A model generated the notes under the pieces. The model worked only from the letters and a program-made list of their open reading frames with translations, was not told where the DNA came from and did no database searches. From a virus, in IMG/VR virus record IMGVR_UViG_3300039425_000002: 64,000 bases of DNA; one strand, 5' to 3'. Position 1 is the stretch's first letter, and the number at the start of each line of letters is the position of its first letter. Positions 18,446 to 40,763 of this stretch are shown here, in pieces. The position numbers and the translations under genes were made by a program.

Positions 18446-18457
18446 AAATTCCCCGCG

Positions 18458-18637
18458 TCACCGTGTCACCGCGTCCTCGTCCTCTTCTTGGGCTTCAATT
18501 TCTTCTTCTAAAGGCGCGATCGCTTCAATTGCAAGCAACGACTCTGCTTGTTGCTTGCTCATGGTGACGGTGCTTCCTTCCTCGTACAACTTGCCGTCGC
18601 TGTGTTGTAAATCTGTCAAAACCTTATATTTAGGCAC
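18458..18637 (-). CDS. Small phage structural/assembly protein (59 aa, not in ORF track)
   Basis: GTG start: MPKYKVLTDLQHSDGKLYEEGSTVTMSKQQAESLLAIEAIAP; within the tail operon. Confidence 0.6.
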   Translation of the reverse strand: MPKYKVLTDLQHSDGKLYEEGSTVTMSKQQAESLLAIEAIAPLEEEIEAQEEDEDAVTR

Positions 18638-18777
18638 AAAAATACCCTGCGCTTGGTTTCTATCTCGCTTAAATCAGCCAGGATTCGCAGCGCTTGACCA
18701 GCCAGGGTCGGAGCCAGCACTATCAGCCAGGAAAGCACTGGGTCGCTATCTAATGATATTTCTCAAAGTTTAGTTTG

Positions 18778-19218
18778 TCAGGCGGAAAGGAACTCGTATT
18801 CAAGTATCTCAAACTTCACCTGCTCAATTATGCCCAGCGCTGGGCTGGGCGGCACCAACTTAGGTGAAGTCATCAGATAGTCCAGCCCATCCACCAAAGC
18901 TTCAGTCGCTTCTAATAAACTATCCTGGGCGTTCCATTGCTTAAGAGTGATCGCCCAGCGCAAAGGCTTCATTTTACCGCCGATTAAGGGGACAACGCTT
19001 GGATAAGGACGAGTGATAATACACTCGATTCCAGTCGTTACCGTGCCACCATTGGGATAATTCCATCCTGCATTGATATCAGGAAGAACTGCGATCGCTG
19101 GCTCTGTATACCCATCAGAGTAGCGGTAAGTGCCAACTATCCCATCGAGGAGGGTAAGGATTTGCGATCGCAGTTGAGTACACTCAATCATGCAAAGTAT
19201 TGAGGGTAGATTGATCAA
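18778..19218 (-). CDS. Putative tail terminator / neck protein
   Basis: Size and position upstream of major tail gene. Confidence 0.55.
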   Translation of the reverse strand: MINLPSILCMIECTQLRSQILTLLDGIVGTYRYSDGYTEPAIAVLPDINAGWNYPNGGTVTTGIECIITRPYPSVVPLIGGKMKPLRWAITLKQWNAQDSLLEATEALVDGLDYLMTSPKLVPPSPALGIIEQVKFEILEYEFLSA

Positions 19219-19637
19219 ATTTCTGGGTAGATATCTGGATACAGAATTCTGTCATCAAAGTTGTGCCCATACTTTCGCCGTCTATCAACAGCTAACATTC
19301 CATTACAATCTTCTTGTCTATGTTTAGCAACTCCAGGACCAATAGCAAATGTTGATGCCTGAGGGGTAGCGTTGGGAGAGACATAAAAATACCAACTCCA
19401 CCATCTACCATAAAACCAGATTGGAGGATGGAAGCAGATAAAACCCCATCTTTTAGTGTGGATGTTAACCGCGACGTGCATCGCGTTGAAGCCATAAATA
19501 GTAACCTTTCCCCAGGAGACGTGACCTCCTAACTTCTCTTCGAGATACCTTTCGAGTGAATGCTTCACAATCGTCTCTCTAGTTCTTGTTGAAATACTTC
19601 TACTGGATTTACCTCTTCTAGTGCTACTTCTGTCCAC
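19215..19637 (-). CDS. Hypothetical aromatic-rich protein (start uncertain)
   Basis: ORF between neck genes; W/F/Y-rich core. Confidence 0.45.
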   Translation of the reverse strand: MDRSSTRRGKSSRSISTRTRETIVKHSLERYLEEKLGGHVSWGKVTIYGFNAMHVAVNIHTKRWGFICFHPPIWFYGRWWSWYFYVSPNATPQASTFAIGPGVAKHRQEDCNGMLAVDRRRKYGHNFDDRILYPDIYPEI

Positions 19638-19969
19638 GGACGAGCAGGTAATTCAGTTCCCGATCGCAGCGTTGCCCCTTCGTGTACCGCGATCGCATGA
19701 TTAACGTCCCAGCTGAACTCTGCTGCGTTGGCAGAGCGAGTGATCGCCTTTGATTCAAGCAGTGCGCCCGTATCAATGATGTCACGCGGGCTAGTTACGG
19801 TCTTGCCCGATTTCCTTTTGGTAGGACGTGGCCAATCATAGATTTGGGCAGCGATCGCATCGTCAAATGCTTGGCTCATGCGGTCTACAGTATTGTCAAA
19901 AGCTCGATTAATTGCACCATTGAGCTTCTGCGCATCAATTCTGATTTCAGCCATGGCGAAATACTCCAA
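19565..19969 (-). CDS. HK97 gp10-like tail completion protein
   Basis: PRDIIDTGALLES...AVHEG...PARPW. Confidence 0.75.
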   Translation of the reverse strand: MEYFAMAEIRIDAQKLNGAINRAFDNTVDRMSQAFDDAIAAQIYDWPRPTKRKSGKTVTSPRDIIDTGALLESKAITRSANAAEFSWDVNHAIAVHEGATLRSGTELPARPWTEVALEEVNPVEVFQQELERRL

Positions 19970-20339
19970 TAATTTTAGTCAGAAAGTTGATTTTCAGTCC
20001 AGTCAGGTAAGGTGAACTGGATAGGGGCTGTAGTTCAAACGTCCCCGTCTCTGTTTTACCAACTGCCGTGGTGATTGTCGCCCTGCCTTCGGCTGGGGGG
20101 TGCAAGTTGGTGGGTAGTTGTAGTGGGTTTGTTAAGTAGCCAGACATTAGCTCTGCCGTCTGATCGTCGCCTAAGTAGTAAGCGACTTCTGCTGCATTCC
20201 TCACTGGTTTGAGCATGGCGCGGATTTCTACCTGCGTTTCTTCCATCACGCGGTTGCCCACTGAGTTGATCGTAAAGTTACCCGTGGGGATGTCGAAGTG
20301 AAGAACAGCGTTTTCAAATGGACTGAATGGAGAAGACAT
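19947..20339 (-). CDS. Putative head closure protein
   Basis: Size and position at the start of the neck/tail operon. Confidence 0.5.
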   Translation of the reverse strand: MSSPFSPFENAVLHFDIPTGNFTINSVGNRVMEETQVEIRAMLKPVRNAAEVAYYLGDDQTAELMSGYLTNPLQLPTNLHPPAEGRATITTAVGKTETGTFELQPLSSSPYLTGLKINFLTKIIGVFRHG

Positions 20340-20346
20340 AAGTTAC

Positions 20347-20721
20347 AGAGTGGGAAGCAAAGCCCACCACTTTTAAGGGTGGGATGTAGCGTTAGCGCTT
20401 TTAAACGCCGTCGTGTTATAATTGATACAAGTTCTTCGACATACTTGAGGTAGGGGGTTCTGTTCAGAAGTTGAGCAGGTAAAACCTTAAACGTACCGTA
20501 AGGATGTAGCTGATCAGTTTGATGGGTCATAGAGTCGCTAGGGGTAAAAGCCGGGATTCAACCACTGAGAAGCCTCAAGAAAGAAAACCATCCTGGAGTT
20601 TGGGTTCGCCCAACTAGGCAGGGCGTTGTCTAGTAGGAGAGAATGTGTCAGACGGGGTTCGCCTCGCATCGTTCGCCAGTATCCTAGAATCCCACTGCTT
20701 CTAGCTGTGGGAGTGCGTCAA
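20347..20721 (+). mobile_element. Non-autonomous IS200/IS605 derivative
   Basis: Left hairpin cccacc-actttta-agggtggg; right end gaatcccactgcttctagctgtgggagtgcgTCAA. Confidence 0.7.
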
Positions 20722-21017
20722 TGACGTTTCCAAATCTCAACTTCCCCAAACTGAGGATCGTGTTCTACATGGAGGACAAATCCTTTCCTCTCCAAAATCT
20801 TTTGCATCTGCCTTAGAGGGTTAGGCACGACAACTTGCAAGTTTCGAGACTCAATTGACTCTAGAAGGCGCGAAAAATTGCCCTTTCCTGGGCGCTTCGA
20901 CAGAATTGCTGAAATGAAAATGCGATCGCCCTCTCTCCATAGATAGCCGTAGAACTTGTCGCTAGTAAAGCCAATTTGTTTAGCAAAATCAGAATCTAAG
21001 TCAATGAGTCCACTCAT
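20718..21017 (-). CDS. Small GNAT-like protein
   Basis: IFISAILSKRPGKGNFSRLL...MQKILERKGF; likely start MSGLID. Confidence 0.5.
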   Translation of the reverse strand: MSGLIDLDSDFAKQIGFTSDKFYGYLWREGDRIFISAILSKRPGKGNFSRLLESIESRNLQVVVPNPLRQMQKILERKGFVLHVEHDPQFGEVEIWKRH

Positions 21018-21036
21018 AGTGATCACCGAAAATAGA

Positions 21037-21444
21037 ACGGGAGTGTGGATGCCCTGTACCTTCAGGTCAGGGAGGAAGCACGACGCGGTGGTTTTAACCA
21101 CCGTCATGATATAATTTATACATACCGAAATGCTGCAAAGGCACTGTCTGATCTCGCAGGAACCGCTTCGCCAGTAGGTAAGTGTTGGTGCATAACACGC
21201 AAATCGAGATTTATTGGGGTCGTCCGATGATCGAATCGGTGTATAAACAATACTCCAGCAGGGGGACACAGGCTCTCGTACCGCTTGTGGGGAAGCGTTG
21301 GAGATGTAAGCCGACCTGGAGGTTCCTGAACTAATATGCTTGCAGGTGTCCATCTGTAACATCGTTAGGGAAGAGGGCTACTGAAACATTCCATCTGGAG
21401 GACTAAGGCGAATGCCCCGTCTCTTCAGAGCGGGGTGAGCTTAC
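21037..21444 (+). mobile_element. Non-autonomous IS200/IS605 derivative
   Basis: Related subterminal hairpins ccctgtaccTTCAggtcaggg and ccccgtctcTTCAgagcgggg; no transposase. Confidence 0.65.
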
Positions 21445-21527
21445 TTTTACCGAAATTCATACTTCTTTTTGGAAAGATGCGATCGCTCTAACCTCAGCTA
21501 TGATAGTGGCGAGCATTACCTCTACCA

Positions 21528-22004
21528 ATGTCCCTCACTCTTTCCCTTGCTGGCATCAGCGTTACCCTAGAAAAATTTCTCTCCACAGATTACCCCAGAA
21601 TTACGATTGAATCTTTAGCCGCAGTAGAATTCTCAGCTTTGGGTACTCCTGCTATTTCTGGTAGTCAGTTTGAGCCAAAGTTTTTGTGGAACATCAGTTG
21701 TCTTGTTAATCAACAGCAGCGGGATTTGTTGGAGGCGATCGCCTACGAATTCCAAACCCGCCGTCGAGCACTACAAGCCTGCGATATTTTAATTTATGAC
21801 CGAACGGCAACTTTGAAAGAACGCAGTCCCAGGAGTCGAGCACTGGTGCCAACTACCGCTGAATTATCTTTAAATGGTGGTACTCACACGGCATATTATG
21901 GGCAGTTCTACGCCGGAATCACAGAGGGTCCGCGCTTTACTAAACAGGGACGGTTGGATGCTATGTCACTCGTTCTAACTGAAACAATCAAGGTGAGCGC
22001 GTAG
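21528..22004 (+). CDS. Putative distal tail protein
   Basis: Size; first gene of the tail-tip cluster. Confidence 0.45.
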   Translation: MSLTLSLAGISVTLEKFLSTDYPRITIESLAAVEFSALGTPAISGSQFEPKFLWNISCLVNQQQRDLLEAIAYEFQTRRRALQACDILIYDRTATLKERSPRSRALVPTTAELSLNGGTHTAYYGQFYAGITEGPRFTKQGRLDAMSLVLTETIKVSA

Positions 22005-24478
22005 TGGCGATTAACACCAGCGCAAGAAAGCACAGACTGCTGATCGGCGGACAAGACTTTTCCGCTGGTCTAGTTGAGGTTTCAAATTGGCAGTCCACCC
22101 CAATTGACGGCAGTGGATTAATCCGCACTACCGCTACGCTGACGTTGATTGAGGTTAGAGGATTGCCAGGAAGTCTAGACGATCGCATCAATTCCCTATG
22201 GCGGGTTGGACAAACCGTTCATATTGATGTCACCACCGAGGATGCTGGCACTTTATCCCGACACCCAGCTGGCACCCTCCGCATCCTCAGCAGCGAGTGG
22301 GATTATGAAAGCCGTCGCCTCACCCTCAACTGCGGTTGTTTGATTACCCTACTTTCCTATCGTCAACCGACAGACCCTAAAAAGACAGGCATTGAACCAG
22401 GGAGTTTGACCTCAAGGAATGCGATTGTCCGCAATCTACTACAAGCCGCCGGGATAACAGCGATCGCCCTCCCCTACAGCCTGCCTTATCCCCTCCACTA
22501 CCCGGAAATCAACGGTAGCTACTTAGAGGCAGATGGAAAATTGCTTTACAGTGCCGGGTTTGTGGGGTGGATTGATAAGACAGAAACCTTCCGGATTAAA
22601 CCAGTTAGCCTGCAAGGAATCTCTCAACTAACTCTGCAAATTGGCGGCGATCGCGGGGATGAACTATGGTGGCGCAGGCTCTCTTCGGCAGAAGGTCCAA
22701 GGGAAATTATTAAAGTCCGGGGCGTTAAACAAATCGCCTCGTTTCCGGAATACCCCAAGCAAACAACTGTCACTCGCTACGGGGCAGCCAACACTGTAAT
22801 TCCAGGGGCAGGGAACTACACGATAGTCACGGGATACGAAACGATTAGAGAAGAGTATGATTCTTCGGCAAAGAAACTAACAGCCACGCGCATAAGTTAT
22901 CGGAGTTTCAGCTTAGTTTATCCTGAAAAAGAGCCGCGTTCGACTAATCTAGTTAATGATCTACTAAGTATTGAATCAAGGCAATTTGAAACAGGGGATG
23001 AAGGTAAATTAATTAGTAGTTATACCAAAGTTTACAAGCAAGCCGATGTGATTGAAGCGGAGTATATTAAGTACAAAGAAGAGAATGAAAACGTGCAATT
23101 TAGTCTTGGGAACTTGATTTTAGCTGAGGAGATTTTCACCTCCTATACCTACGATCGCAAGAACCGCCCGGTTTCTGTAACAACGACTAAATACGAAACC
23201 GAAGTAGCAATTCTCACGGGGACTAACCACGATTGGGGACCTTATCCTTTGCCACCGACTAATCGCGTTCCTTCGGAGGTGACGACTGAAACTTGGTCTA
23301 ACCCTCGACTGAATGAATGGGCGCATACAGTTTTTGGCTCCAAAAGTTACTGTCGGTTGAAGCCAGAATTGCTGACAGATGAAACCACAACCAATCAGAA
23401 ACTAAGTCTAGCTGCGGATGATTCTGTATCGGTAAGGGAAGTGTCAAATAGCGGTCAGACTGTACCGCCTGCACCCGAACGGTGCCCCCCTAAAGCGAAC
23501 TTCTACGACCAGCAAGTGTGTGGGGAAGCCAGATTTTCTCAGCACGGCGGAAATCCCTATCAAGAAAGAGAGCGGGTATTTCAAATTGATTACCTAGCTG
23601 GAAAAGTACAGACTCAAAGTAATGTAGACTATACTTCCACTCCAATTGAGGATTGCACAGATGCCCAGTGCCAGAAGATAGCTCAGATTGAGGGCGCTTT
23701 ACTCTACGGCAGGTTCAAGGGACAAGATATTGGCTTGAATTTAAATGATGCCTTGTTTAACTGGGAACCGCTGATGCGGGTAAATTGTGTCGAACCAGAT
23801 GGAACGCAACGTGTCTTCGCTTTGGATGATGCCCACTGGTACCTGGGGCAGCAGCGGGCAATGTGTAATTTTGGTTGTATTTGGATAGGCGACGCTAGCG
23901 GCATAACTCGTACTGCTACCGTGACAACGAGTGCGATGGTCGCTCCGCGAACCGCCGAAGGCATCGCTTCCCCTGGCGATACGACAATCTCGATTCAGCC
24001 AAGTCCGGGGTATATCCCAGCCAATACAGTGCTGACAATTGGGGGAGTGGAGGTGGTGACGGCGGAAGCTGTGCAGTTTGGGGATACGGCGATCGCTGTT
24101 GTTTCAATTCCCGCTCCAATTGATAGTGGCGTAAGCGCTACTTACACAGAAGAAATCCTACACCTGCCTTATGTACGGGTGCAGAACCTGACGGTGCGGG
24201 GTGTGGGGGTCGTGGAGGTCGTGGCTCGTCCTTATGCCCTAACTGCAACTACTGTGAGTGTTGAAATAGTAGGTGTAGGAGCGATCGCAGTTCAGACTGC
24301 TTCATCTGGAACTGGGGCAGGTTTTTACTGGGATGACGTGAGTGAGGAACAGTGGAACAACATGACTGAAACTGACTGGAACAACGCTTTCCCTGGTAGC
24401 GGCACCCTGACTTGGAATGCTATGACTGAGGAGAATTGGAATAATTTAACTGAAAATAGCTGGAACAATCTTGCCTGA
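22004..24478 (+). CDS. Putative tail tip / hub protein
   Basis: 824-aa beta-rich protein sharing a domain with the major tail protein; Trp-rich C-terminal repeats. Confidence 0.6.
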   Translation: MAINTSARKHRLLIGGQDFSAGLVEVSNWQSTPIDGSGLIRTTATLTLIEVRGLPGSLDDRINSLWRVGQTVHIDVTTEDAGTLSRHPAGTLRILSSEWDYESRRLTLNCGCLITLLSYRQPTDPKKTGIEPGSLTSRNAIVRNLLQAAGITAIALPYSLPYPLHYPEINGSYLEADGKLLYSAGFVGWIDKTETFRIKPVSLQGISQLTLQIGGDRGDELWWRRLSSAEGPREIIKVRGVKQIASFPEYPKQTTVTRYGAANTVIPGAGNYTIVTGYETIREEYDSSAKKLTATRISYRSFSLVYPEKEPRSTNLVNDLLSIESRQFETGDEGKLISSYTKVYKQADVIEAEYIKYKEENENVQFSLGNLILAEEIFTSYTYDRKNRPVSVTTTKYETEVAILTGTNHDWGPYPLPPTNRVPSEVTTETWSNPRLNEWAHTVFGSKSYCRLKPELLTDETTTNQKLSLAADDSVSVREVSNSGQTVPPAPERCPPKANFYDQQVCGEARFSQHGGNPYQERERVFQIDYLAGKVQTQSNVDYTSTPIEDCTDAQCQKIAQIEGALLYGRFKGQDIGLNLNDALFNWEPLMRVNCVEPDGTQRVFALDDAHWYLGQQRAMCNFGCIWIGDASGITRTATVTTSAMVAPRTAEGIASPGDTTISIQPSPGYIPANTVLTIGGVEVVTAEAVQFGDTAIAVVSIPAPIDSGVSATYTEEILHLPYVRVQNLTVRGVGVVEVVARPYALTATTVSVEIVGVGAIAVQTASSGTGAGFYWDDVSEEQWNNMTETDWNNAFPGSGTLTWNAMTEENWNNLTENSWNNLA

Positions 24479-25152
24479 TGCCAGTCACAGCCACTCAACA
24501 CGCAGATATTCTTGATTTCAAAGTAGAACGCATCTACCGAGGTCAGACAGCTAGGATATGCCTCTCAAATACTGCCCTTACAGTCAATAGCACCCCAGAA
24601 GAAGTGTTTGCTTCCGAACTGCTACCTCAGAATGGATATGCTCGGATTAGTCAAGCGATTGCTACCGATGCTGGTATCTATAATTCCAGCACTGAGGAAT
24701 TGACTTTACCTATCCTGAATGCTACCTTCACCGCCTCCGGTGCTGCCTTGGAGTGGCGATCGTGCTTCGTGCTTATAGGGGGCAGCGCCACAGCATCCAA
24801 GTCTTTTACCGCAGCAAGCGTCGACCCAGCAGCCGATCGGATTACGCTAGCTGCCCACGGTTTAGCGAATGGCGATCGCATCCTATTTACACCCGAAGCG
24901 ACGAGCATGCTACCAGGAGGAATAGCTAGTTCTGTGCGTTACTACGTGGAAGCGGTTGACCTCAACACTATCCGCTTGCACGCTAATTTGGCACTCTCTT
25001 CTTTGGTAGACATTACCAACACTGGTAGTGGCACAATGTACCTCCGCTATGCCAGTGGCAGAATTGCAGCAGTGGTACAAGAGGATGCGCCGGTGCAGCG
25101 TTTGGATGGGCAGCAGTACACATACAGTATTAATCTCAAGGAGGCAATTTAG
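24478..25152 (+). CDS. Phage tail structural protein
   Basis: NGYARI...ATFTASG and DRITLAAHGLANGDRI motifs seen in tail proteins; translationally coupled. Confidence 0.6.
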   Translation: MPVTATQHADILDFKVERIYRGQTARICLSNTALTVNSTPEEVFASELLPQNGYARISQAIATDAGIYNSSTEELTLPILNATFTASGAALEWRSCFVLIGGSATASKSFTAASVDPAADRITLAAHGLANGDRILFTPEATSMLPGGIASSVRYYVEAVDLNTIRLHANLALSSLVDITNTGSGTMYLRYASGRIAAVVQEDAPVQRLDGQQYTYSINLKEAI

Positions 25153-25154
25153 TC

Positions 25155-26306
25155 GTGGCACCACAGACAGGATATGCCGTAGCAGATATAGCAGCACTGA
25201 AGGCAATTGCTGCCACAGATAGGACGGACGGGTACTCAAGATTAGTAAAGATCGCGGCTGACGGAAAGCCTGCTTGGTATACATTCGTCGATAGTAGTAG
25301 CGCCACTGGCGATGATAGTTCGGTGGTCGTACCAAATGCAGGAACGGGGAGATGGGTTAGATCAAATCAACCCCTCAACACGACTACAAATGGCGGCTCT
25401 AGTAGTTCTGGCGCAGACAATATTCTGACTGGATTGCTTTCTTTCTGGCAGTTTGAAGAAGCCTCTGGCATTAGAAACGATGTCATGGGATCTAATCATT
25501 TAACGCCTTCTGGGACAATAACCCAAGTTGCTGGAAAAGTAGGTAATGGGGCGCATATTTCAACTGGAAGTTACTTATCGGTAGAGGATAACTCTCCTAA
25601 CCTGAGAATATTATCAAACAATAGCTTGACTATTGCGGGATGGTTTAAACCGGATACTTTGAACGCTACAACTCTTAGGGAGATAATTCAAACAGAGGGA
25701 TACCATATAGGTATAACTCCGGCTAATAACCTGATTTTTGTTGTACGAGCTAGCAACGGTCCAGAGGGTTATATATCACTACCAATAGCAACAGCAAATG
25801 TTTGGTACTTTTTTGTTTGTGAATATAATTCTAGTACAAACAAAATTTCATTACAGTTGAACAACAACGCAGAAACTACAGGCGACTGCATAGCTGATAA
25901 TAGTTACGTAAGTGGTACTTTTTATATTGGATGTTATAACCCTGATTATTATTACTTTGATGGTATTGTTGATGCGCTAGGAGTTTGGAATAAAGTACTC
26001 ACAACAGAAGAAAAGACATATTTATATAATGAAGGCAATGGTGTAAAGCTTCCAACCTTAGTTAATGCACATCAAATTCAATCTCGCAAAGTATCTAATA
26101 CAACCCCTACAGATGAGCAAGCTTTGATCTGGGACAACACTGCTTTGATATGGAAACCCGGATTCCCTAAAAAACTCGGCTTTGGCAATGCTCCTGCCAC
26201 TACTATATCTACAGGAACACAAGGTGAAATCAGAGTAGATGACAATTATTTGTATATTTGCGTCTCGCAGGATACCTGGAAGCGAGTTAGCTTAGCAACG
26301 TGGTAA
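25155..26306 (+). CDS. LamG/concanavalin-domain tail fibre protein
   Basis: WQFEE, TIAGWFKP, FDGIVDALGVWNKVLT; C-terminal GEIRVDDNYLYICV..DTWKR. Confidence 0.8.
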   Translation: MAPQTGYAVADIAALKAIAATDRTDGYSRLVKIAADGKPAWYTFVDSSSATGDDSSVVVPNAGTGRWVRSNQPLNTTTNGGSSSSGADNILTGLLSFWQFEEASGIRNDVMGSNHLTPSGTITQVAGKVGNGAHISTGSYLSVEDNSPNLRILSNNSLTIAGWFKPDTLNATTLREIIQTEGYHIGITPANNLIFVVRASNGPEGYISLPIATANVWYFFVCEYNSSTNKISLQLNNNAETTGDCIADNSYVSGTFYIGCYNPDYYYFDGIVDALGVWNKVLTTEEKTYLYNEGNGVKLPTLVNAHQIQSRKVSNTTPTDEQALIWDNTALIWKPGFPKKLGFGNAPATTISTGTQGEIRVDDNYLYICVSQDTWKRVSLATW

Positions 26307-28351
26307 ATCCAGAGTCTAGGTTACAACAACAAGCCGCTCTAGCCCGTGCTGCCCGCCAACAACAACGGGCAAAAAAGGAGCGATCGCTACCTCATCCCCA
26401 CGCCACAGCTGCTGGGTTTGATGCCGACTTGGGATTAGAGAGGATTCAGCTAAGTGATGGCTCCATCCGGTACGCGGCACCCGAGACGAATGGGGCGATT
26501 GGGATTGGAGATCCTGTGCTGATGCATGAGAGTAGGGGAGCGACTCATGTTGATGCACCGCCATCTGTGAAACGCAGACTTAACCCACAATTACCCAAAA
26601 GTCCACCAGTTACAACTCCTTTCAAAGTGTTATTTAGCGTGGAATCTAATGATATACGAAAATTTTATATTGGAGGTGATAGACCAGTTCCCGTAGAAAT
26701 TCTTTCTTTAAATATGAACGATGTTTATATTTACGATATATATATATCAAATACTGGTAAGAAAAAAGATGACTGGATTGTAACCCTTCGTTATTGGGAA
26801 TTTGACACAAATAATGTAATAACGCGATCACTTGGATTTCCAGAAGATACTTGGCAGTTTAGTTCTCCCCCTTCTCCGAATGAACACCCATCAATATTTA
26901 CTGAATATAGAGGCGGCGGGGTATGGTTGAGCAGACAAGCCATATATGCTAACACTAGTAGATCGTCCACTATTGATTATTTAGATCCTAACAAGGATGC
27001 TGAATCAATTATTTATCCCATACTGAATAGTCCCCCATTCATGTCTTGCGGCGGTGAAAAGCGCATCACAGTTGAGATGACTGGAGGGAATTGTAAGTCT
27101 GATGGTACGCCTTATTATGTCGATGGAATGAATTTATATCGACCAAGCCGAAGCACTCTTTCTGACAATACTCATGTTGACATGGGTAGTTTTGCACTTT
27201 TTAAAAATCAATCAAAGTTGTCCATAGGTGAATACCGCTTTGATACTACAAGTATTCTTGACAGGCTGTGCGCGGATAATCTTGAACAACGCGGAACGAA
27301 AGACCACCTATATACAGAACAATTAACACATTTTTTATCTAATACCATATCAGGAGAAATTACAGAACGCTTTGAGGCTCACGGTGTTTATGCTGGACGT
27401 GATTATAATAGTTGGTCAGCTATAGTTCCTGAATACCGAGAATATGAAGACGCTAATATCTTAGTAGCAGTGGGGGGAAAAACCTGCATAAGTGCTAGTG
27501 CAGAGCATACAGAAGTTGTAGAAAGCTACGGAAAGGGTAGTAGTGTTAGTGAAACTTTTATTCAGTCTACCTCAACTCGTTTTTTCTTGAATATAACTAC
27601 ACTTAAAGAAAAAGAATTAAATAACTCTTCTAGCTTTACTTTTGTTTGCGGAAGCAAGCTTGATATCAATGAAAATACAACTACAATTAATATTCCTACT
27701 AGCTTTTATGGTATTTCAGCTAGAATGTCTGTGCCGTTAGATATCTATACAGGCTATAATAATTCCACGCGGACAAGCGAACCTTTAAATTTTAATTTCA
27801 TTGGACAGCCTGTTAAAATCTCTCAAATAGCCAATTCAGAATTTACCGAATACTGGACAGCATTAGGAACGATAAGTTCATTTCGGTTAGGTGGTCTTCT
27901 TCAGCAAAATTCAGATCATGTTAGAAGTGCTTATATTACTGAAATGTCAATCAATATTACTGAAGTTAAAAAAACAAAATATGATTATTTAGCATCTATA
28001 AACGGAACTGTTACTTGCCTCAATAATTCAGTTTTTCCCTTACTTTACCTTGAACAAGGTTTTTTTCATCCGATGGTTAATTTTAAAGGTGGGGCTTATC
28101 AAAGTGTTGACTATAGATTCACAAATTTTATTAAAGATAAAATATATTTTTCTCGCTATCCTCAAGAGTTGTTATCTAAATCTGGCAATGGTCATGCTGA
28201 AGTGTGGGAACTTCGTCAAAATGGAGATAAATTAGATGCGGTTCAAGGAGAGCTTGTTTCAGGTAAAGTTTACTCTTTAAAAGCGCCTACAAACTACAAA
28301 GATAATCCTAATATTATTTATAAGATTGAAAGTGTAAGTTGCTATGCCTAA
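26300..28351 (+). CDS. Putative receptor-binding / tail protein with AT-rich C-terminal region
   Basis: In tail cluster; composition shift after about 26640. Confidence 0.55.
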   Translation: MVNPESRLQQQAALARAARQQQRAKKERSLPHPHATAAGFDADLGLERIQLSDGSIRYAAPETNGAIGIGDPVLMHESRGATHVDAPPSVKRRLNPQLPKSPPVTTPFKVLFSVESNDIRKFYIGGDRPVPVEILSLNMNDVYIYDIYISNTGKKKDDWIVTLRYWEFDTNNVITRSLGFPEDTWQFSSPPSPNEHPSIFTEYRGGGVWLSRQAIYANTSRSSTIDYLDPNKDAESIIYPILNSPPFMSCGGEKRITVEMTGGNCKSDGTPYYVDGMNLYRPSRSTLSDNTHVDMGSFALFKNQSKLSIGEYRFDTTSILDRLCADNLEQRGTKDHLYTEQLTHFLSNTISGEITERFEAHGVYAGRDYNSWSAIVPEYREYEDANILVAVGGKTCISASAEHTEVVESYGKGSSVSETFIQSTSTRFFLNITTLKEKELNNSSSFTFVCGSKLDINENTTTINIPTSFYGISARMSVPLDIYTGYNNSTRTSEPLNFNFIGQPVKISQIANSEFTEYWTALGTISSFRLGGLLQQNSDHVRSAYITEMSINITEVKKTKYDYLASINGTVTCLNNSVFPLLYLEQGFFHPMVNFKGGAYQSVDYRFTNFIKDKIYFSRYPQELLSKSGNGHAEVWELRQNGDKLDAVQGELVSGKVYSLKAPTNYKDNPNIIYKIESVSCYA

Positions 28352-28389
28352 CCCAAGCCCTGACATACTCAAGAGCGCCGCATCAAAAA

Positions 28390-28530
28390 TGGACAATTAA
28401 CAGTGGACAGTGGACAGTTGATAGTTGACAGTTGAAAAATCTTCGTTGTCAATTGTCAATTGTCAACTGTTCACTGTCTTCGCTGTCAATTGTCCACTGT
28501 CAATTGTCAACTCTCTTTGTCAATTGTTAA
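28390..28530. repeat. Cyanobacterial STRR-like heptamer repeats in inverted arrangement
   Basis: gacagt(g/t)g series followed by ttgtcaa / ctgtc series. Confidence 0.8.
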
Positions 28531-28532
28531 CT

Positions 28533-28808
28533 ATGCGACCAGAAGAATTACTCCAACAACAAGCCGCGATCGCTCGCACTCAACGCTCTTCACTCAAGGT
28601 CGAGCAGCAGGAACTGCAACAAAACCGCACCCAGTTATCCGCCACCCTGCTCAGTTTCGACTCCGCTCTCGGTGCTTGGCGGTGCCGGTTAGAGGATGGC
28701 TCAGTGATTTATGCCAAGTCAATTACTTCTAGCGGTGGCAAGGGAGCTGGCAGCGTGATTTCTTTATATAAGCCTGCTCAGGGAATGGCGATTATCAAGT
28801 GGCTTTAG
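28533..28808 (+). CDS. Small paralog of the N-terminal domain of 26300..28351
   Basis: PEELLQQQAAIAR...FDSALG...LEDGSVIYA vs PESRLQQQAALAR...FDADLG...LSDGSIRYA. Confidence 0.65.
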   Translation: MRPEELLQQQAAIARTQRSSLKVEQQELQQNRTQLSATLLSFDSALGAWRCRLEDGSVIYAKSITSSGGKGAGSVISLYKPAQGMAIIKWL

Positions 28809-28835
28809 GGCTGGGTGCGATCGCCAAAGGCATTA

Positions 28836-29333
28836 TCAATCCGTCCGGCTTGAAGCATAGTGCACATGCTCCCACGCCCCTTTAAGTGCTTCCCGCTCTC
28901 GCTCTATCGCATTCGCTCTTTGCTGCACTGCTTGATAAATCAATTGCAACTTCTTTTCTCGTTGCTTGAGTAAATCTTCCCGGCGCTCAATCTCTTGCTC
29001 GCGAATAAACAATTGCTGGCTCTGATAATCTAGCGATTCGCGCCAGAGCTTGATTTCCGATTCTCGACCATCAAATTTAGCCGACTTGAGCACCCAATCT
29101 CGGAAAGAACTAATTAGCTCATCTAAAGCAGGAATAATTTTGACAATCTGCCGTTGCTCGTTCAACTCAACTAGAACCAATACGCCCTGATTGAAGCGAT
29201 TTTGCTCCGACGATAAAGCGATCGCTTCTGATGCAACTTTCGCCCATAGCCCATCAAGGCGCTTCTGGCTGACCAGCTGCACCTTTGTTTTGCCGTAGAG
29301 AGGCTTCTCAATCACCTGGGCGAGGTAGTACAT
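28836..29333 (-). CDS. Truncated homolog of the N-terminus of pilus motility protein HmpF
   Basis: MYYLAQV...GVLVLVELNEQRQI...EIKLWRESLDYQSQQLFIREQE resembles the recalled cyanobacterial HmpF N-terminus. Confidence 0.7.
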   Translation of the reverse strand: MYYLAQVIEKPLYGKTKVQLVSQKRLDGLWAKVASEAIALSSEQNRFNQGVLVLVELNEQRQIVKIIPALDELISSFRDWVLKSAKFDGRESEIKLWRESLDYQSQQLFIREQEIERREDLLKQREKKLQLIYQAVQQRANAIEREREALKGAWEHVHYASSRTD

Positions 29334-29624
29334 CTACTCAAGCTTGCGCCCCCCAGATAAAGCGCTGCCGAGAGCGATCGCCAACTTGTCTGTATTAAAT
29401 CCCAAGGCTGAGGCTACCAAAAACAAATAGCCACCTAGCACATGCACTGGAACATCTTTAGTATGGATATCCAGACCAGATTTAGAACTATACTTAGCAT
29501 CAACTGACTGCCAGCAAAGTAGTCCAGTCAGGGCAATACTGAACAGATAAGCATAACCTTTGCCCAGAGTTTTAGATTGAGGAATAATTTCTTTATCGTT
29601 GAGCACTAGTCTGTTCCTCCCCAA
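29334..29624 (-). CDS. Two-TM membrane protein (holin candidate or pilus-cluster accessory)
   Basis: Two hydrophobic segments; near the endolysin. Confidence 0.5.
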   Translation of the reverse strand: MGRNRLVLNDKEIIPQSKTLGKGYAYLFSIALTGLLCWQSVDAKYSSKSGLDIHTKDVPVHVLGGYLFLVASALGFNTDKLAIALGSALSGGRKLE

Positions 29625-30168
29625 CCGCTACGCTTTGGTTAGTACACTTGATCTCCCCGCCGCCCATGTGAGCCTCGCCGGTTGTTAGCTCGATGTTGGC
29701 AGCACTCAGAACCTGCCCTAGCTGGGTTGATTCGCACATTGCGGTCAAGGTAGCCGGTTCACCAGAACCAGGTTGGTAAGCTAACCCGATTGCCCCAACA
29801 TAAGACTTGTAAGCATTGCCCTTGGGAGTCGCGATCATCGCTACCCCTACGCCCTCTTGGGTTGGAGCAAAGCTGTAGTCGTAATTGCTGGTAGAGGTGG
29901 CGATGCCCAAACCTAGTTTGCCAATCTGGGCAGTGTCGGTGACAAACTCACCGTGTTCAAGGTAATAGACTTGCTGCGCTCTGTTTAAGCTAGACAGGTT
30001 TACTTTGGCATCTGTTTGCTTTGCTTTGTTGGCTTGACTTAACAGCGAAGGTACAGAAATGGCAGATAGAATGCCAATGATAATAATCACGACTAATAGT
30101 TCGGTTAGGGTAAAACCTTGTTCTTTTTGCTGGTTTTTTAAATACTTTATTAGATAAAGTTTTATCAT
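29593..30168 (-). CDS. Type IV pilin (PilA-like, cyanobacterial pilin G/H type)
   Basis: Prepilin site QG|FTLTELLVVIIIIGILSAISVP; NRAQQVYYLE; C-terminal Cys pair. Confidence 0.92.
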   Translation of the reverse strand: MIKLYLIKYLKNQQKEQGFTLTELLVVIIIIGILSAISVPSLLSQANKAKQTDAKVNLSSLNRAQQVYYLEHGEFVTDTAQIGKLGLGIATSTSNYDYSFAPTQEGVGVAMIATPKGNAYKSYVGAIGLAYQPGSGEPATLTAMCESTQLGQVLSAANIELTTGEAHMGGGEIKCTNQSVAVGEEQTSAQR

Positions 30169-30243
30169 ATTTAATCAACTAGAAATACTTATCTAATTAG
30201 AACTTACCCAGTTAGCTACAATTCATTTCATCGCCCAATTTTT

Positions 30244-30273
30244 ATACTAACTAAGTCATAACTTAGTTAGTAT
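30244..30273. promoter_or_regulatory. 13-bp perfect inverted repeat (operator candidate)
   Basis: ATACTAACTAAGT-cata-ACTTAGTTAGTAT between divergent pilin and CopG-like genes. Confidence 0.65.
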
Positions 30274-30344
30274 TTTTCTTTGGTGTCTACTTATAAAAAG
30301 GCATAAAATAGTAATAATTTAGTTAGCACATAACTAGTATAGAA

Positions 30345-30524
30345 ATGCCGCGTGGTAAGCCAGGAAAGAAGACTGAAAGAGCGCCAACCATTTGCTTCCA
30401 GCCTTCGGAAGCGGAGCGAGAGATATTAGAGACTTACTGCCAGCAACAAGAAAGAACAATGACCGATGTGCTGAGGGAATTAATTAGAGGATTGAAAGTA
30501 AAACCTAAGAGCGATCGCCCATAG
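30345..30524 (+). CDS. CopG/RHH transcriptional regulator (59 aa, not in ORF track)
   Basis: SEAEREILETYCQQQERTMTDVLRELIRGL. Confidence 0.75.
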   Translation: MPRGKPGKKTERAPTICFQPSEAEREILETYCQQQERTMTDVLRELIRGLKVKPKSDRP

Positions 30525-30578
30525 TTTGTGGGCAAACTAATCTAGGAAGGTAAGTTTAGTCTGATTATTGAAACTTTA

Positions 30579-31469
30579 TTGTTTAAAACAATGACACTAA
30601 ATATTCTGGAATCAATTACTAACCCTGTGAAGTTACAAGAGGCACCGCTTGAGATTGTAAAAGCAGTGCAAATCGAGCTAATCCGGATTGGGTTATTCAA
30701 TGATAGGGTTGATGGTATTGCTGGCAATAAGACGATGGTGGCATTTCATCAATTTAAGAATTTAACTGGCTTAGGCGAATTTGACACTTTGGGACAGACA
30801 ACAGCACAGAAACTACTCAAGGTAAAGTCAATCACTCCCAAACAGCTGCATTTAGGAAACGATTTGGCTGCACGAATTATCAAGTATTGCTTAGCACAAA
30901 ACTATTCGGTAGCAGTAGGCGATCGCCTTTATAATCTTGTGTACGTTGAAGGCGTTGATGCCGATGGAAAGCCGAACGCGGACCGCTTAAACGAATGGAA
31001 CGATCGCCGGATTGTAATTGAGATTGTGGGCGGTACTCCTAAAATTGTTGGCAACTGGCTAGCAACCAGTGAACCCGGAGCCAAGTATACCTATTCGCCG
31101 CTCAACCCAGAGGGAGCAGCGCGAATTGCTTTTGGTCAGTATAAAAGCTGGAAAGTAGGCATTCACAAGGATCACGAAGCACTGGTGCAGGTGGCAAATA
31201 TCAAAGTCCACCGCGATCGCAATCAAGATGGCTCCCGTGCTGGCGATCCAGTCAGAATTGGCTGCTACGGAGTAAATCAGCACTGGGGCTATGATATGAC
31301 CCGTGTTGACGGCGCATCGGCGGGGTGTTTGGTTGGGCAATCAAGGCAAGGGCATAGAGAATTCATGGCTCTGATTAAGCAAGATCAGCGTTACCAAGCA
31401 AACCACAACTATTTATTTGATACGGCAGTTATTCCTGGGGATGATCTGGCAAAGCGTTTTCCTGCATAG
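30579..31469 (+). CDS. Endolysin: peptidoglycan-binding domain plus YkuD-like catalytic domain
   Basis: VDGIAGNKT..AFHQFK PG-binding motif; NQHWG...SAGC. Confidence 0.8.
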   Translation: MFKTMTLNILESITNPVKLQEAPLEIVKAVQIELIRIGLFNDRVDGIAGNKTMVAFHQFKNLTGLGEFDTLGQTTAQKLLKVKSITPKQLHLGNDLAARIIKYCLAQNYSVAVGDRLYNLVYVEGVDADGKPNADRLNEWNDRRIVIEIVGGTPKIVGNWLATSEPGAKYTYSPLNPEGAARIAFGQYKSWKVGIHKDHEALVQVANIKVHRDRNQDGSRAGDPVRIGCYGVNQHWGYDMTRVDGASAGCLVGQSRQGHREFMALIKQDQRYQANHNYLFDTAVIPGDDLAKRFPA

Positions 31470-31501
31470 ATTGGTAGCAGATGGCGTAGCGGGGAGTGCA
31501 A

Positions 31502-31972
31502 CTAAGCGATCGCTGGGATTAGGTTAAGCTGCTGTGCTAAAGATTCTACTTGCGCCTTCACATAGTCAAAGTCTTTATAAGTTTCCCAATCTCGGGTTCT
31601 CATCACCCACGCACCAGGGCAGATATCGCCTGCATGGCAGCAATCAAACCCAATCCACCAAACTTTATCCGACTGACCTGGCTGGGGGATATGGCAGATT
31701 CCAAACTCCTTGTTATCTTCCTGACAAAAATCAGTAAAAGTTATACCGCCGTGAATCTGAAGGCTTTCGATTTCATCAGTAAGATAGTCGAGTTCGAAGT
31801 AAGGGTGCGACTGGTTTACCCCTACATAACCGCATAAAGCACCGTGATTTGGCTGGCGTACAATCAAACAGGGTAAGCCAGTAGCTAAGTCAATCCATTG
31901 CGCCTTGTCTGGTTCGTCTTTCCACTTGCCTTTGTCCCAATTACTCTTATCTATAAACGTCCAAGTTTTCAT
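31502..31972 (-). CDS. Conserved phage hypothetical protein
   Basis: GALCGYVGV...HGGITF...WWIGFDCCHAGD. Confidence 0.7.
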   Translation of the reverse strand: MKTWTFIDKSNWDKGKWKDEPDKAQWIDLATGLPCLIVRQPNHGALCGYVGVNQSHPYFELDYLTDEIESLQIHGGITFTDFCQEDNKEFGICHIPQPGQSDKVWWIGFDCCHAGDICPGAWVMRTRDWETYKDFDYVKAQVESLAQQLNLIPAIA

Positions 31973-32411
31973 TATTTTGATTGAGGCGATCGCCTGAATA
32001 CCTTCTTTTTTTGTTAACTATACTGTATAAGTGCAAAAAAATATGCCCCCTCTTGTAGAGAGTGTTGCGGAACGCGCTAGCCTAATCTTGCCCTGGCTTG
32101 CTTGATTTTGCTTCCATGCGATCGGTGATTTTTGAGGGCGATCGCTAAGTTAATCAATATTTGAGGCTTCGACTACGCTCAGCCTCAACACCTCGACTTC
32201 GCTCGGTGTTGAGGTTTTTTTGCATTTTTTTGCATACTGCATAGCCACTATCACTTCGCCGTCTTGCGAGCGGAAAATAGGTGCTAAAAGATATTTTCTG
32301 TTTCGTGCCGCTGCTCTTGCGTTAGTTGACACAGTCTCAAACTCTCCAGTAAACTCAAAAAATTTTTCTGGATAGCCTGACTTGATTGCGTGAGGAAAAC
32401 CTGATTTATTC

Positions 32412-32455
32412 ATGATATACTGATTGAAGTACTGATATACTGATAAAAGTATAGC
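32412..32455. promoter_or_regulatory. Direct repeats upstream of parA (parS/operator candidate)
   Basis: tgatatactgat x2 plus overlapping tactgat copies. Confidence 0.5.
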
Positions 32456-32463
32456 CTGAAGTC

Positions 32464-33123
32464 ATGAATACTTGCATTGGTATTGTCAATCAAAAAGGCG
32501 GAAGTGGAAAAAGCAGTACGGCTGTAGCTTTAGCGTATTGGTTGTATCACAAACAAAATTACAAAACGATACTTATTGATGCGGATGCGCAGCGATCAAG
32601 TTCTAGGTGGATTGCATCATTGCCAAAAACAGAAACTATACCCTATGAGGTTATAGGAGATGCAGATTCGTTAATTGAACAAATCGAGCCAATTTTACAG
32701 AAGCATGAATTTGTTGTGATTGATGGACCTGGAAGTTTAGCTGAAGTAACAAGAGCAATCGTCCTTTTATCGCATTTAGCTGTAATACCTTGTCAGCCAA
32801 CAGGATTAGATTTAGGAAGTGCGGCAGATACAGTTCGATTAGTTTTACAGGCACGCCAAATTAGAAAAAAGCTGCCATTATCAGTAGCTTTTTTAAACCG
32901 AGCAGTAAAAGGGACTCGACTAAAACTTGAAGCGCGATCGCTTCTGGGCGATCTTCCTGGCATACATTTATTGAATTCTGTCGTTCATCAAAAACAAATC
33001 ATTGCGGATGCAGTAGGGCAGCAATCAACAGTATGGAATATCCGCGATCGCACATCAACTGATTCGGCACGGGAATACAGCAATTTATTTACTGAAATAT
33101 TACAATGCCTAGAAAACCTTTAA
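32464..33123 (+). CDS. parA: ParA family ATPase
   Basis: NQKGGSGKSS Walker A, IDADAQ, VIDGPG. Confidence 0.92.
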   Translation: MNTCIGIVNQKGGSGKSSTAVALAYWLYHKQNYKTILIDADAQRSSSRWIASLPKTETIPYEVIGDADSLIEQIEPILQKHEFVVIDGPGSLAEVTRAIVLLSHLAVIPCQPTGLDLGSAADTVRLVLQARQIRKKLPLSVAFLNRAVKGTRLKLEARSLLGDLPGIHLLNSVVHQKQIIADAVGQQSTVWNIRDRTSTDSAREYSNLFTEILQCLENL

Positions 33124-33500
33124 ATCATTCAGAGCAATTTAAAGAGAACTTTGAATTATTACCAAAACAAGAGATTTTAGATTTTGTCCACAATAAAAGA
33201 GCGAGGGTAAGTGAAGATAAGAAGCAAAACAGACGACAGGGCGTTGAGGAAACCTCAACGCAACGTCCTCCTGAAAATCCTGAAACTAGTTCTTCTTCTC
33301 CTCACCCTTTTTCGTGTGAATCAATTATGTCTGAAGTTAAAAAAGAAGACGCTCAACCAATAAAAACTGTAAGAATAACAGCCGACCTGCCTAAACCGAA
33401 CCATAAAAGGTTGAAGGAAGCCGTGTATGACATGAATACGGATATTAATAAATTGGTTAATGCTTTAGTCGATCAATTTTTGGATGCTGCGGGATATTGA
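33105..33500 (+). CDS. ParG-like RHH partition partner
   Basis: Overlaps the parA end; C-terminal RITADLP...LVNALVDQFL RHH pattern. Confidence 0.65.
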   Translation: MPRKPLNHSEQFKENFELLPKQEILDFVHNKRARVSEDKKQNRRQGVEETSTQRPPENPETSSSSPHPFSCESIMSEVKKEDAQPIKTVRITADLPKPNHKRLKEAVYDMNTDINKLVNALVDQFLDAAGY

Positions 33501-34119
33501 CAAAGGAGCGATCGCAATGCCAAACAAATCGGAATCGGTAAGTGAAGACAAAGTTATCTCTGTTGAGTCAGTCGTCACATCAGTCAACGACAAGCCGTAT
33601 ATTCAAATTAATTGGGGCAATTCCAAAGGAGTACTTTCTGTTCCTGATGCTAGAGCTAGAGCAATGGCTTTGTTAAATGCATCTGCGATCGCAGATGCTG
33701 AGGCGCGAGTATTTGAATTGCTTCTGCCTCCAAGTAAAGGCTTTAATCCAAATAATCCTGATAGAAAAGCACAGCAAGCAATTTTGACGTTGAGAGAGAT
33801 GCGGCGCAAGCGATCGCCCCTGCCTCCAGATATCAATCCTATTTACGGCTTCAAAAATCGCGAACCATTAATTGAATATCAGTGGGGTGATGAAAAAGGT
33901 ACTTTGGATTTGGATGCCGCTCGCGATCATGCTAGGGGGCTGTTGGAGTCAGCGGAGACAGCGGAGAACGATAGTTTCTTCTATCACTTTTTTACGACCA
34001 AGCATGACATTTTAAGCCGCAGTCAAACTGAAGAGTTTTTGCAAGATTTTAAGCTATTTAGACAACAAACCATATTAGAAGAAATGTTTGAAGAAGAGAG
34101 CGATCGCCATGAAATCTGA
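33484..34119 (+). CDS. Hypothetical protein with internal domain duplication
   Basis: WG..KG.L....AR..A..LL occurs twice. Confidence 0.6.
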   Translation: MLRDIDKGAIAMPNKSESVSEDKVISVESVVTSVNDKPYIQINWGNSKGVLSVPDARARAMALLNASAIADAEARVFELLLPPSKGFNPNNPDRKAQQAILTLREMRRKRSPLPPDINPIYGFKNREPLIEYQWGDEKGTLDLDAARDHARGLLESAETAENDSFFYHFFTTKHDILSRSQTEEFLQDFKLFRQQTILEEMFEEESDRHEI

Positions 34120-34627
34120 GTGGACTGACTGCGGCGACTACGAGGATTTGATCTGCGATTACGGCAGAATTTCTCTCCAGCCGCGCCCTAGTTATTGCGA
34201 TCGCGGTCGATTTGTCGTCCAGTTACTGATACATGGTCCGACCAATCATTTGCTTAGCACGCCATTAAGTAATGCCTATTTCTTTAGCTATCAAAATGCT
34301 AAAGAGGAAATTGCCCGGTGGTTGACCCTAGCTGCTAGTGCCACCCCCGAACAATTGCGAACGCTCAAGCCAGAAACATCTAGGGAGCAGTGCTTGCACA
34401 TGAGCGGATTGAATTGCGAGGCTAAAGTTTATCAGCAGGTTTTGCAGCCCGTCAATACCACCATGTACATATTCGAGGTGGAGATCAAGCCAGGAAATGA
34501 ACTGGCGCTTGATGTTAATGAAGCAGACGAATTTCCCAGAGTCTATTTGGATTTAGGTGTTGCTCGGCAAGAAGTTTTGGCATGGATGCAGTGTCGCGGG
34601 CAGATCGACCAAACATTAATTGGTTGA
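34088..34627 (+). CDS. Hypothetical protein
   Basis: Coupled ORF. Confidence 0.55.
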   Translation: MKKRAIAMKSEWTDCGDYEDLICDYGRISLQPRPSYCDRGRFVVQLLIHGPTNHLLSTPLSNAYFFSYQNAKEEIARWLTLAASATPEQLRTLKPETSREQCLHMSGLNCEAKVYQQVLQPVNTTMYIFEVEIKPGNELALDVNEADEFPRVYLDLGVARQEVLAWMQCRGQIDQTLIG

Positions 34628-34650
34628 CACTGGTTAACCAATAGGCTATA
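34624..34650 (+). promoter_or_regulatory. Sigma70-type promoter with palindrome in the spacer
   Basis: TTGACA-ctggttaaccaataggc-TATATT. Confidence 0.65.
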
Positions 34651-34831
34651 TTAGATACATGGAAAACAAACGGGTCGCCGCCGCAACGGGCGTAAAGGGA
34701 TTCCATGCAACTAATCAACGCGATCGCACAAGTCCTCAAAGTTTCAGAGAATCAAATCAAATCAATCGATAAGTGGGCATCAGTATATTTCGTTCGCTTC
34801 AATATTGGTTGAATCATTAAGGAGAACTCAA

Positions 34832-35311
34832 ATGTCTTTACAAGAATTTCTAGCTAATAATAATTCCGCTGAAACTCAATGGGGTGTATGGGTAAATCCA
34901 CAAGACTTAGAGGACTACAGGATTGGGCAATACGTCTTTGAAAATGATGGAGTTCTTGACGAGAAAGTTTGTATCGGAAACCTGGATAAACTATCTCATG
35001 AGCGTCGGGTTTATTGCGGTGAAGAGGATGGGTTATCGGGATACGTTCGGGATCTGGACGGATTAACTCGATACAAGAATAAACTAGTAAAATTCAATCC
35101 TGAAGCTTTGGCTGATGCCATTAGCAACGGCTTCTGTAATGAAGAATTTGAAGAACACTTTCGCACCGAAGCCGAAGAACAGTGGCAAGAATTTTCCCAA
35201 GAGTGGGCAAGGCAGAAGATTGAGGAGTTGAAAGAGTATTTTGCTCCTGGCGGTGAGTGGGAGGAAGAGTGCGAGCAGCAAAGGCTTGAAGCCGAGGCAT
35301 GGGCATCTTAA
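34832..35311 (+). CDS. Highly acidic hypothetical protein
   Basis: AGGAG RBS; strongly E/D-rich. Confidence 0.65.
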   Translation: MSLQEFLANNNSAETQWGVWVNPQDLEDYRIGQYVFENDGVLDEKVCIGNLDKLSHERRVYCGEEDGLSGYVRDLDGLTRYKNKLVKFNPEALADAISNGFCNEEFEEHFRTEAEEQWQEFSQEWARQKIEELKEYFAPGGEWEEECEQQRLEAEAWAS

Positions 35312-35688
35312 CCAGCAGGAACTACCGCCCAAAGCGGTCGCCCGCTGGCGACCGAATCTCAGTGAAATTAATGATTAAAAGTAATATGACTCAAAAAGAA
35401 CTTCCGCTTCGAATTAGATTTTTAATGATTGAGATGAATTCTAGATTTCAAGAATCTAAATCCCTAAAGAGAAAGTATCAACTAAATAAGCTGGTATCAA
35501 TAGCTAAAGCACTTTTTAATTGGGGCAAGGCTAAAGCAGTTTTAGAACAAGGACGTATTGAAAGAAACAGACTAATTGCTCGGATGGACAGAATAGCTCA
35601 AGAACTAAGTGATTTACAAAATTCTTTAGACAAGGAAGTAGAAGCATTACAAAATGCAAAAAGCCAAAGCGATTTACAGAGCAGGTGA
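35299..35688 (+). CDS. Hypothetical coiled-coil protein
   Basis: Coupled ORF. Confidence 0.5.
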   Translation: MGILTSRNYRPKRSPAGDRISVKLMIKSNMTQKELPLRIRFLMIEMNSRFQESKSLKRKYQLNKLVSIAKALFNWGKAKAVLEQGRIERNRLIARMDRIAQELSDLQNSLDKEVEALQNAKSQSDLQSR

Positions 35689-40574: not shown

Positions 40575-40755
40575 GAGGACGCGGGGACGCGGGGGAAGAG
40601 GACGCGGGGACGCGGTGACGCGGGGACGCGGGGAGTGAGTGAGGCGCAATGCGCCTCAAAGGACAAAGCTTCTATTGAGCAATCTTTATCTGCAATGTCA
40701 CCGCGTCCCCGCGTCTCCCTGTCCCCGCGTCCTCTTCCCCCGCGTCCCCGCGTCA
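40575..40755. repeat. Small repeat element with inverted GACGCGGG 8-mer flanks (copy 1)
   Basis: Core of about 90 bp near-identical to 46545-46635. Confidence 0.85.
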
Positions 40756-40763
40756 TTTCTTGT

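Follow-up and report, generated by a model that had tools for sequence, protein, structure and literature searches.

Phage-encoded pilins and modulators of the pilus motor are both known from Pseudomonas. P-FimU and P-PilA, pilus subunits encoded by prophages of Pseudomonas and Xylella, have been proposed to replace the receptor (PMC12952977). Zip binds PilZ, has an anti-Kronos effect and is under the control of a host regulator (bioRxiv 2024.03.05.583538), and Aqs1 is a PilB-binding protein (PMC13060843). The SNJ2 proviral pilins of Natrinema are assembled by the host machinery, create a receptor and promote biofilm formation (PMC12426801), and marine cyanophages have been reported to bind pili (bioRxiv 2025.09.20.677514). 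On the host side, pilus extension depends on HmpF, which has Hfq and PilT as binding partners (PMC12288463, PMC11407516), and HmpF homologues show cross-interaction (PMC7002697). The sequence GGGTAAG is the SigF/pilA1 motif of Synechocystis (PMC2532724), and in Nostoc punctiforme, whose SigF regulon is very small, no other characterised hormogonium gene shares the strict SigF dependence of pilA (PMC6495340).

The locus described here lies within a 64-kb stretch of viral DNA (the window) and comprises genes for a prepilin, for a protein with two hydrophobic segments (2-TM protein) and for a 165-residue protein related to the N-terminus of HmpF (mini-HmpF). It resembles P-FimU and P-PilA in providing a phage pilus subunit with a divergent surface and a promoter of its own that appears tuned to that of the host gene. 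It differs from them in that the pilin is of the cyanobacterial major-pilin type, the box is of the type read by host SigF, and an HmpF-derived protein and a holin-like gene, next to the endolysin gene, are predicted to be co-transcribed with it. The role proposed for mini-HmpF is similar to that of Zip and Aqs1, two small proteins with which phages adjust the pilus motor so as to exclude rivals or protect progeny; it differs from both in deriving from a regulator of the host that is confined to cyanobacteria. SNJ2 likewise has virus-encoded pilins, but it is archaeal and comes without a motor regulator. An earlier note made from the sequence of the locus had known of no description of the combination. 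No match for it was found in the literature, although phage pilins as such are known (PMC12952977, PMC12426801), and searches of the open full-text literature for a phage HmpF homologue or for this cassette found neither (Table S3 of PMC12952977, on PilA-like proteins of phages, could list cyanophages). What appears to be new, and was not found in the literature searched, is the HmpF-derived and seemingly SigF-driven cyanobacterial version.

Phage setting and cassette architecture

Judged by its gene content, the window belongs to a tailed siphophage of a cyanobacterium. Profile searches identified genes for a tape measure protein (7282-16284), a tail tube protein (17681-18382) and a major head protein (62250-63365), and also for DnaB, ParA, ParB and an endolysin. 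The window contains 95 copies of an octamer that we take to be HIP1, and no integrase was seen in its 64 kb. From ParA/ParB and HIP1 we infer a temperate life, and the ParA/ParB genes suggest a plasmid-like prophage state. A ParB gene was located at 910-1791, ParA with a small downstream gene at 32464-33500, and a ParB/methyltransferase-like fusion at 48249-50531. The virion genes are arranged in blocks on opposite strands (7282-21362, 21528-28808 and 59387-63929), with the head genes >38 kb away from the tail block. Three IS605/TnpB-type genes are also present (5483-6697, 50588-51835 and 55226-56848), as are a 34-bp inverted repeat (40578-40758) flanking part of the region before an HTH gene, and two 40-bp stretches repeated inside a 534-aa gene that precedes DnaB (46544-46626), resembling the repeats of replication origins.

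A single 14,172-bp contig equal to window positions 21416-35587, with zero variant letters, was present in each of the two rock-metagenome runs that contain the stretch and are possibly the window's own source. The tail genes, the cassette and the endolysin gene are therefore physically joined. The depth of this contig was about 1023× and 315× in the two runs, i.e. the phage is abundant and near-clonal. Short contig matches at 35558-35592, again in both runs, had loose ends resembling a cyanobacterial CRISPR repeat, which we take them to be; a host spacer thus probably targets the window phage.

Features of the cassette and its surroundings in the window
Feature	Position	Strand	Remarks
Tail and tail-fibre genes	21528..28808	+	convergent with the cassette; same contig as the cassette
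mini-HmpF, 165 aa	28836..29333	-	NF038350 match; AlphaFold2 model; own clade
Holin-like 2-TM protein, 90 aa	29334..29606	-	two hydrophobic segments; unnamed cyanophage family
Type IVa major-pilin-like prepilin, 191 aa	29593..30168	-	Pilin_GH, N_methyl
Candidate SigF-type -12 box TGGGTAAGTT	30201..30210	-	41 nt before the pilin ATG
Palindrome, perfect 13-bp arms	30244..30273	.	divergent intergenic region; candidate RHH operator
RHH/CopG-like small regulator, 59 aa	30345..30524	+	weak RHH Pfam matches
SigF-like boxes TGGGCAAACT, then GGTAAGTT	30529..30556	+	between RHH stop and endolysin start
Endolysin, PG-binding N-terminus and catalytic domain	30579..31469	+	likely start ATG 30591

The pilin, 2-TM and mini-HmpF genes were found tightly coupled on the minus strand, all where the earlier note had placed them. 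The 2-TM gene (GTG start) overlaps the end of the pilin gene by 14 nt and the mini-HmpF gene abuts its stop codon, while the RHH gene and the endolysin gene run in the opposite (+) direction. DNA context was available for five mini-HmpF loci (the window, L132, L158, L070 and L069), about 40 other members of the clade being without it. The layout endolysin-RHH / pilin-2TM-mini-HmpF is common to the window, L132 (a phage-like contig of 6.5 kb belonging to genome G660) and L158 (a 43.8-kb IMG/VR record with terminal repeats); the same gene order with a divergent RHH gene thus recurs in other phages, a co-occurrence on which the earlier note had made its proposal depend. Across these three cassettes the window mini-HmpF is about 34% identical to its counterparts, and the type of endolysin differs (M15 peptidase in L132, CHAP in L158). 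In L070 (a prophage with an integrase-like gene) and L069 (a remnant whose mini-HmpF gene is interrupted by TAG, amid IS elements), the order is 2-TM, mini-HmpF and endolysin on one strand, with no pilin; in neither of them does a SigF box precede the 2-TM gene at the spacing known from pilA. Accordingly, a 2-TM gene adjoins mini-HmpF and an endolysin gene lies within about 1.3 kb of it in all five loci, whereas the pilin, the RHH gene and the SigF box accompany it in only three. The fixed link between mini-HmpF and the endolysin had been missed in the first reading of the locus.

Two further mini-HmpF records come from contigs of 8487 and 7173 bp, sizes shared with 2-TM records, which is only a hint of linkage; 20 more mini-HmpF records showed no such size match. 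Scans of IMG/VR with mini-HmpF or with the pilin as single proteins gave no matches, nor did a degenerate motif scan of viral and genome contigs, which in metagenomes returned one chance, fungal-looking match. GenBank phage and plasmid records gave no tblastn match to mini-HmpF or the pilin. The phage with an endolysin 51% identical to that of the window (L001) was found to have neither mini-HmpF nor a pilin.

Relatives of mini-HmpF and of the pilin

The homology to the N-terminus of HmpF, named in the earlier note, was borne out by NCBIfam model NF038350 (E 9.8e-27, residues 1-161 versus profile 1-175 of 553); the score was 93.5 bits against an equivalog cut-off of 200, and the protein falls short of the about 550 aa of full HmpF. 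It keeps W30, L52, L101, Q104 and R111, which are conserved in the family. An AlphaFold2 model (pLDDT 96) shows a five-strand beta domain (residues 2-68) and one long helix (70-164, 95 residues), and fold searches yielded weak OB-fold rows (no E <= 0.001) and generic coiled coils, with no clear match. The N-terminal beta domain, the first coiled-coil and the conserved residues are common to HmpF and mini-HmpF, but HmpF is a host protein of about 550-600 aa, while mini-HmpF has 165 aa, is located in phages and forms a separate clade. No hydrophobic segment was found in mini-HmpF, which ruled out a spanin role.

When 1.84 billion representatives were searched with mini-HmpF, 210 matches were obtained, the best being short proteins. 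When 148 of the 150 matches listed (of 210) were placed in a tree, the window protein fell in a group of 43, all of 111-210 aa (SH-aLRT 100); this group contained no long protein among the matches listed. In a 71-row tree, to which locus-derived copies were added (six ungrouped duplicates uncounted), a branch (97/82) recovered in 100% of 200 bootstrap trees separated 36 mini rows from 21 full-length HmpF proteins and eight short chromosomal paralogues. Another branch (100/100) set the paralogues by themselves, with mini-HmpF outside. By these trees, what had been called a truncated HmpF is rather an old, fast-evolving clade of short proteins, distinct from both full HmpF and the short chromosomal paralogue, and no fresh truncation.

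HmpF matches were found in 141 of 401 genomes of the phylum and 388 of 401 genomes of the order. Most genomes with a match carry full HmpF plus a short HmpF-domain paralogue, so shortness alone is ordinary. This chromosomal paralogue, of about 140-230 aa (e.g. L072:9745-10164, L036 and L037) and near valS in G004, belongs to a different clade from mini-HmpF; the literature passages available gave no function for it. Among 20 genomes inspected by sequence and partly by tree (17 with at least three HmpF matches and three others, those with two matches being left out), copies of the mini clade occurred only in G308 and G660.

The window pilin is, by its sequence features, of the complete major-pilin type. 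It has a class III signal peptide (TIGR02532 and PF07963 above cut-off), a G18-F19 cleavage site, E5, a hydrophobic helix, a Pilin_GH head (PF16734, E 3e-24, 86 bits versus a cut-off of 28.9) and Cys145/Cys175. PHROG 3433 ('pilin', moron category) matches its N-terminus (E 2e-10), but spans only residues 11-61. Identity is about 57-59% to the L132 pilin, 40% to the L158 pilin and, for the six chromosomal pilins compared, 35-49%. In a tree of 29 rows (L016, a long branch, was removed), the window and L132 pilins were sisters (100/98) and the L158 pilin grouped with chromosomal pilins of G660 (100/99); this split had first been suggested by an earlier tree, and monophyly of the three cassette pilins was rejected (p-AU 0.002). 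The position of the L158 pilin implies that a new pilin entered the slot and that the box stayed in place; by this phylogeny, host pilins have supplied the slot on at least two occasions. Compared with the two chromosomal pilins of G660, the genome in which it lies, the L132 pilin shows 39% and 32% identity, values that fall to 27% and 22% for the head. A phage pilin with its own promoter and a host-unlike surface was thus found, the surface being that of L132 measured against G660. Separately, a major-pilin gene lies inside the tail operon of a provirus (L157:7920-8486, record G696) whose tail genes are related to those of the window, and a second pilin-like gene lies elsewhere in the same record (L174:5815-6255); neither mini-HmpF nor a SigF box was found in this provirus.

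It could be argued that a pilA gene, its promoter and a piece of hmpF were simply picked up from hosts and have no joint role. The promoter could indeed have travelled with the pilin, the L069 copy is broken, and the clade is rare (two genomes among those searched). Gene order, SigF box, RHH gene and palindrome nevertheless persist across about 34% mini-HmpF identity and a pilin swap, and the 43 short clade members include no long one among the matches listed, making mere passengers without a joint role highly unlikely.

Promoters, regulator and lysis genes

The sequence TGGGTAAGTT was the sole match in the window (0.15 expected). The GGGTAA core lies 41, 35 and 34 nt before the pilin starts of the window, L132 and L158, respectively, all three pilin operons bearing the GGGTAAG SigF box of host pilA. 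Among host pilin loci, GGGTAA was found <=200 nt from the first ATG in 18 of 25 (L020 was left out as cut, and some misses reflect a misplaced start or a variant box). The box of the pilin operon is thus a pilA-like GGGTAAG -12 element at a pilA-like distance, and a SigF promoter is predicted. A phage-encoded SigF was considered as its reader, and tblastn detected none in the complete G697 record or in the window, although the window may not cover the entire phage genome. Sigma factors of SigF-like appearance do occur in several cyanophages (L176:8894-9583, L179, L177 and L174), where they often follow a 2-TM gene and a conserved protein, about 200 aa long and without annotation.

None of 300 shuffles reached the palindrome at 30244-30273; related TACT.A/T.AGTA palindromes occupy the same place in L132 (21/300 shuffles) and L158 (11/300 shuffles), where they are weaker. 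The divergent CopG regulator claimed in the earlier note is present as a gene, while its label is weak, the matches to PF21432 and PF19839 being below cut-off. Its counterparts in L132 and L158 are 46-48% identical and both match the PHROG 876 repressor. Upstream of the endolysin ATG, TGGGCA[AG][AG]CT is found at -62, -77 and -67 in the window, L132 and L158, the second box, GGTAAGTT, being restricted to the window. In L132 and L158, the endolysin ATG is closely preceded by a hairpin and T-run. The window endolysin itself matches PHROG endolysins (E 1e-18 and 6e-6).

The 2-TM protein of the window has hydrophobic segments at residues 19-35 and 52-68 and matched no family in Pfam, PHROG or NCBIfam; searches of ESM Atlas returned only sub-0.9 viral hypothetical clusters. 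It belongs to a 13-member family (two segments in 13/13 tested), found at eight IMG/VR loci (one being the L158 record and two being duplicates) and in nine places in seven of 401 genomes. Fourteen of these 17 2-TM loci were inspected (L178, L188 and L189 were left out), and none had a pilin or mini-HmpF nearby; an endolysin was nearby in four, and none was found by BLAST in ten. In L183, which has the order tail fibre, 2-TM and endolysin, the endolysin is directly downstream. Five whole records with a 2-TM gene contained no mini-HmpF (0/5) and no Pilin_GH (0/5; the same search was silent in controls). L132, L070 and L069 carry a second 2-TM type that gives no alignment with that of the window (hhalign probability 0.3%). 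A varied context and unalignable types in one slot are typical of holins. The membrane protein had been taken as part of a pilus cassette, but it is not pilus-specific: its family is widespread among cyanophages in which pilin and mini-HmpF are absent, and can occupy the holin position.

The lysis genes found at every mini-HmpF locus leave room for a role in lysis timing. The operon could be a lysis module timed by the host SigF, in which the 2-TM protein is the holin and SigF boxes on both its operon and the endolysin would let the cell burst when the host is piliated and dispersing; mini-HmpF would then be a cytoplasmic partner of the holin, a pole- or septum-targeting factor, or a means of shutting off pili at lysis. 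The position of the 2-TM gene directly upstream of mini-HmpF, with an endolysin close by, in 5/5 loci, the two unalignable 2-TM types in the same slot, the gene order of L183 and the TGGGCA[AG][AG]CT element before the endolysin in the three full cassettes (a GGGCAA variant occurs at G308's own pilins) would all be consistent with this. Yet no holin family in Pfam or PHROGs matched the 2-TM proteins, no endolysin was found by BLAST near 10 of the 14 other 2-TM loci, the hairpin and T-run of L132 and L158 would insulate the endolysin, and the repeated capture of divergent pilins is left without explanation. A lysis module, the main rival of pilus remodelling, is considered unlikely. A further scheme, also unlikely and slightly more so, is that cyanophages domesticated HmpF into a lysis-linked family and that in one lineage pilin, holin, mini-HmpF and endolysin were wired to SigF, so that the host's switch to a piliated, dispersing state would trigger both disguise and lysis.

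Proposed remodelling of the host pilus

The homology to HmpF, the recurrence of the cassette and the pilA-type SigF box make pilus targeting the best reading, as the earlier note had proposed, although the 2-TM protein it had included is not pilus-specific. The form preferred here is a SigF-timed remodelling of the host pilus for superinfection exclusion or progeny protection, which is given about an even chance of being correct. Three phage sequences share an operon of closely coupled genes that bears a SigF box of the pilA type. The host SigF would transcribe it along with pilA; the host prepilin peptidase would process the phage pilin, which would co-assemble into host pili and display a foreign head. 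By masking the receptor, this pilin could reduce the adsorption of rival phages or of the phage's own progeny. Mini-HmpF, in which the beta domain and the first coiled-coil are kept and about 400 C-terminal residues are gone, would for that reason be expected to associate with HmpF at the motor or compete with it there, damping extension. The RHH protein may bind the intergenic palindrome and set the level of expression. The 2-TM/mini-HmpF pair would have come from a lysis cassette, pilin and promoter being added in one lineage.

Several observations weigh against remodelling. The 2-TM gene stands directly before the endolysin in L183 and often occurs without a pilin, so the SigF promoter would be driving a holin, and it is difficult to see how a lysogen could express this without harm. 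The pilin is found at only three of the five mini-HmpF loci, while 2-TM and endolysin are found at all five, and SigF-like boxes precede the endolysin too.

Whether mini-HmpF inhibits or activates pili also bears on the matter; damping is the predicted direction. If it were instead a constitutively active HmpF mimic, then together with the extra pilin it could raise piliation, adhesion or motility, and the infected host would be spread or sheltered, as with the SNJ2 pilins in a haloarchaeon. HmpF is an activator of extension, a supplied pilin suits building pili more than abolishing them, and SNJ2 offers a precedent (PMC12426801). Nonetheless, mini-HmpF is without about 70% of HmpF and occurs also without any pilin (L070 and L069), and the foreign pilin head and its turnover suit receptor competition, which renders pilus boosting quite unlikely.

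What is new in the locus is a short HmpF clade, a SigF box on three pilin operons and at least two captures of pilins from hosts. The retention of the first 165 residues of HmpF over a long divergence points to that module as a candidate for its motor-contacting part, and mini-HmpF offers a ready dominant-acting probe of HmpF. The 2-TM proteins constitute a candidate holin family for cyanophages. If remodelling of the host pilus is true, the cassette would represent a cyanobacterial case of phage pilus remodelling, and would provide a testable link between a developmental sigma factor of the host, phage receptors and lysis genes.
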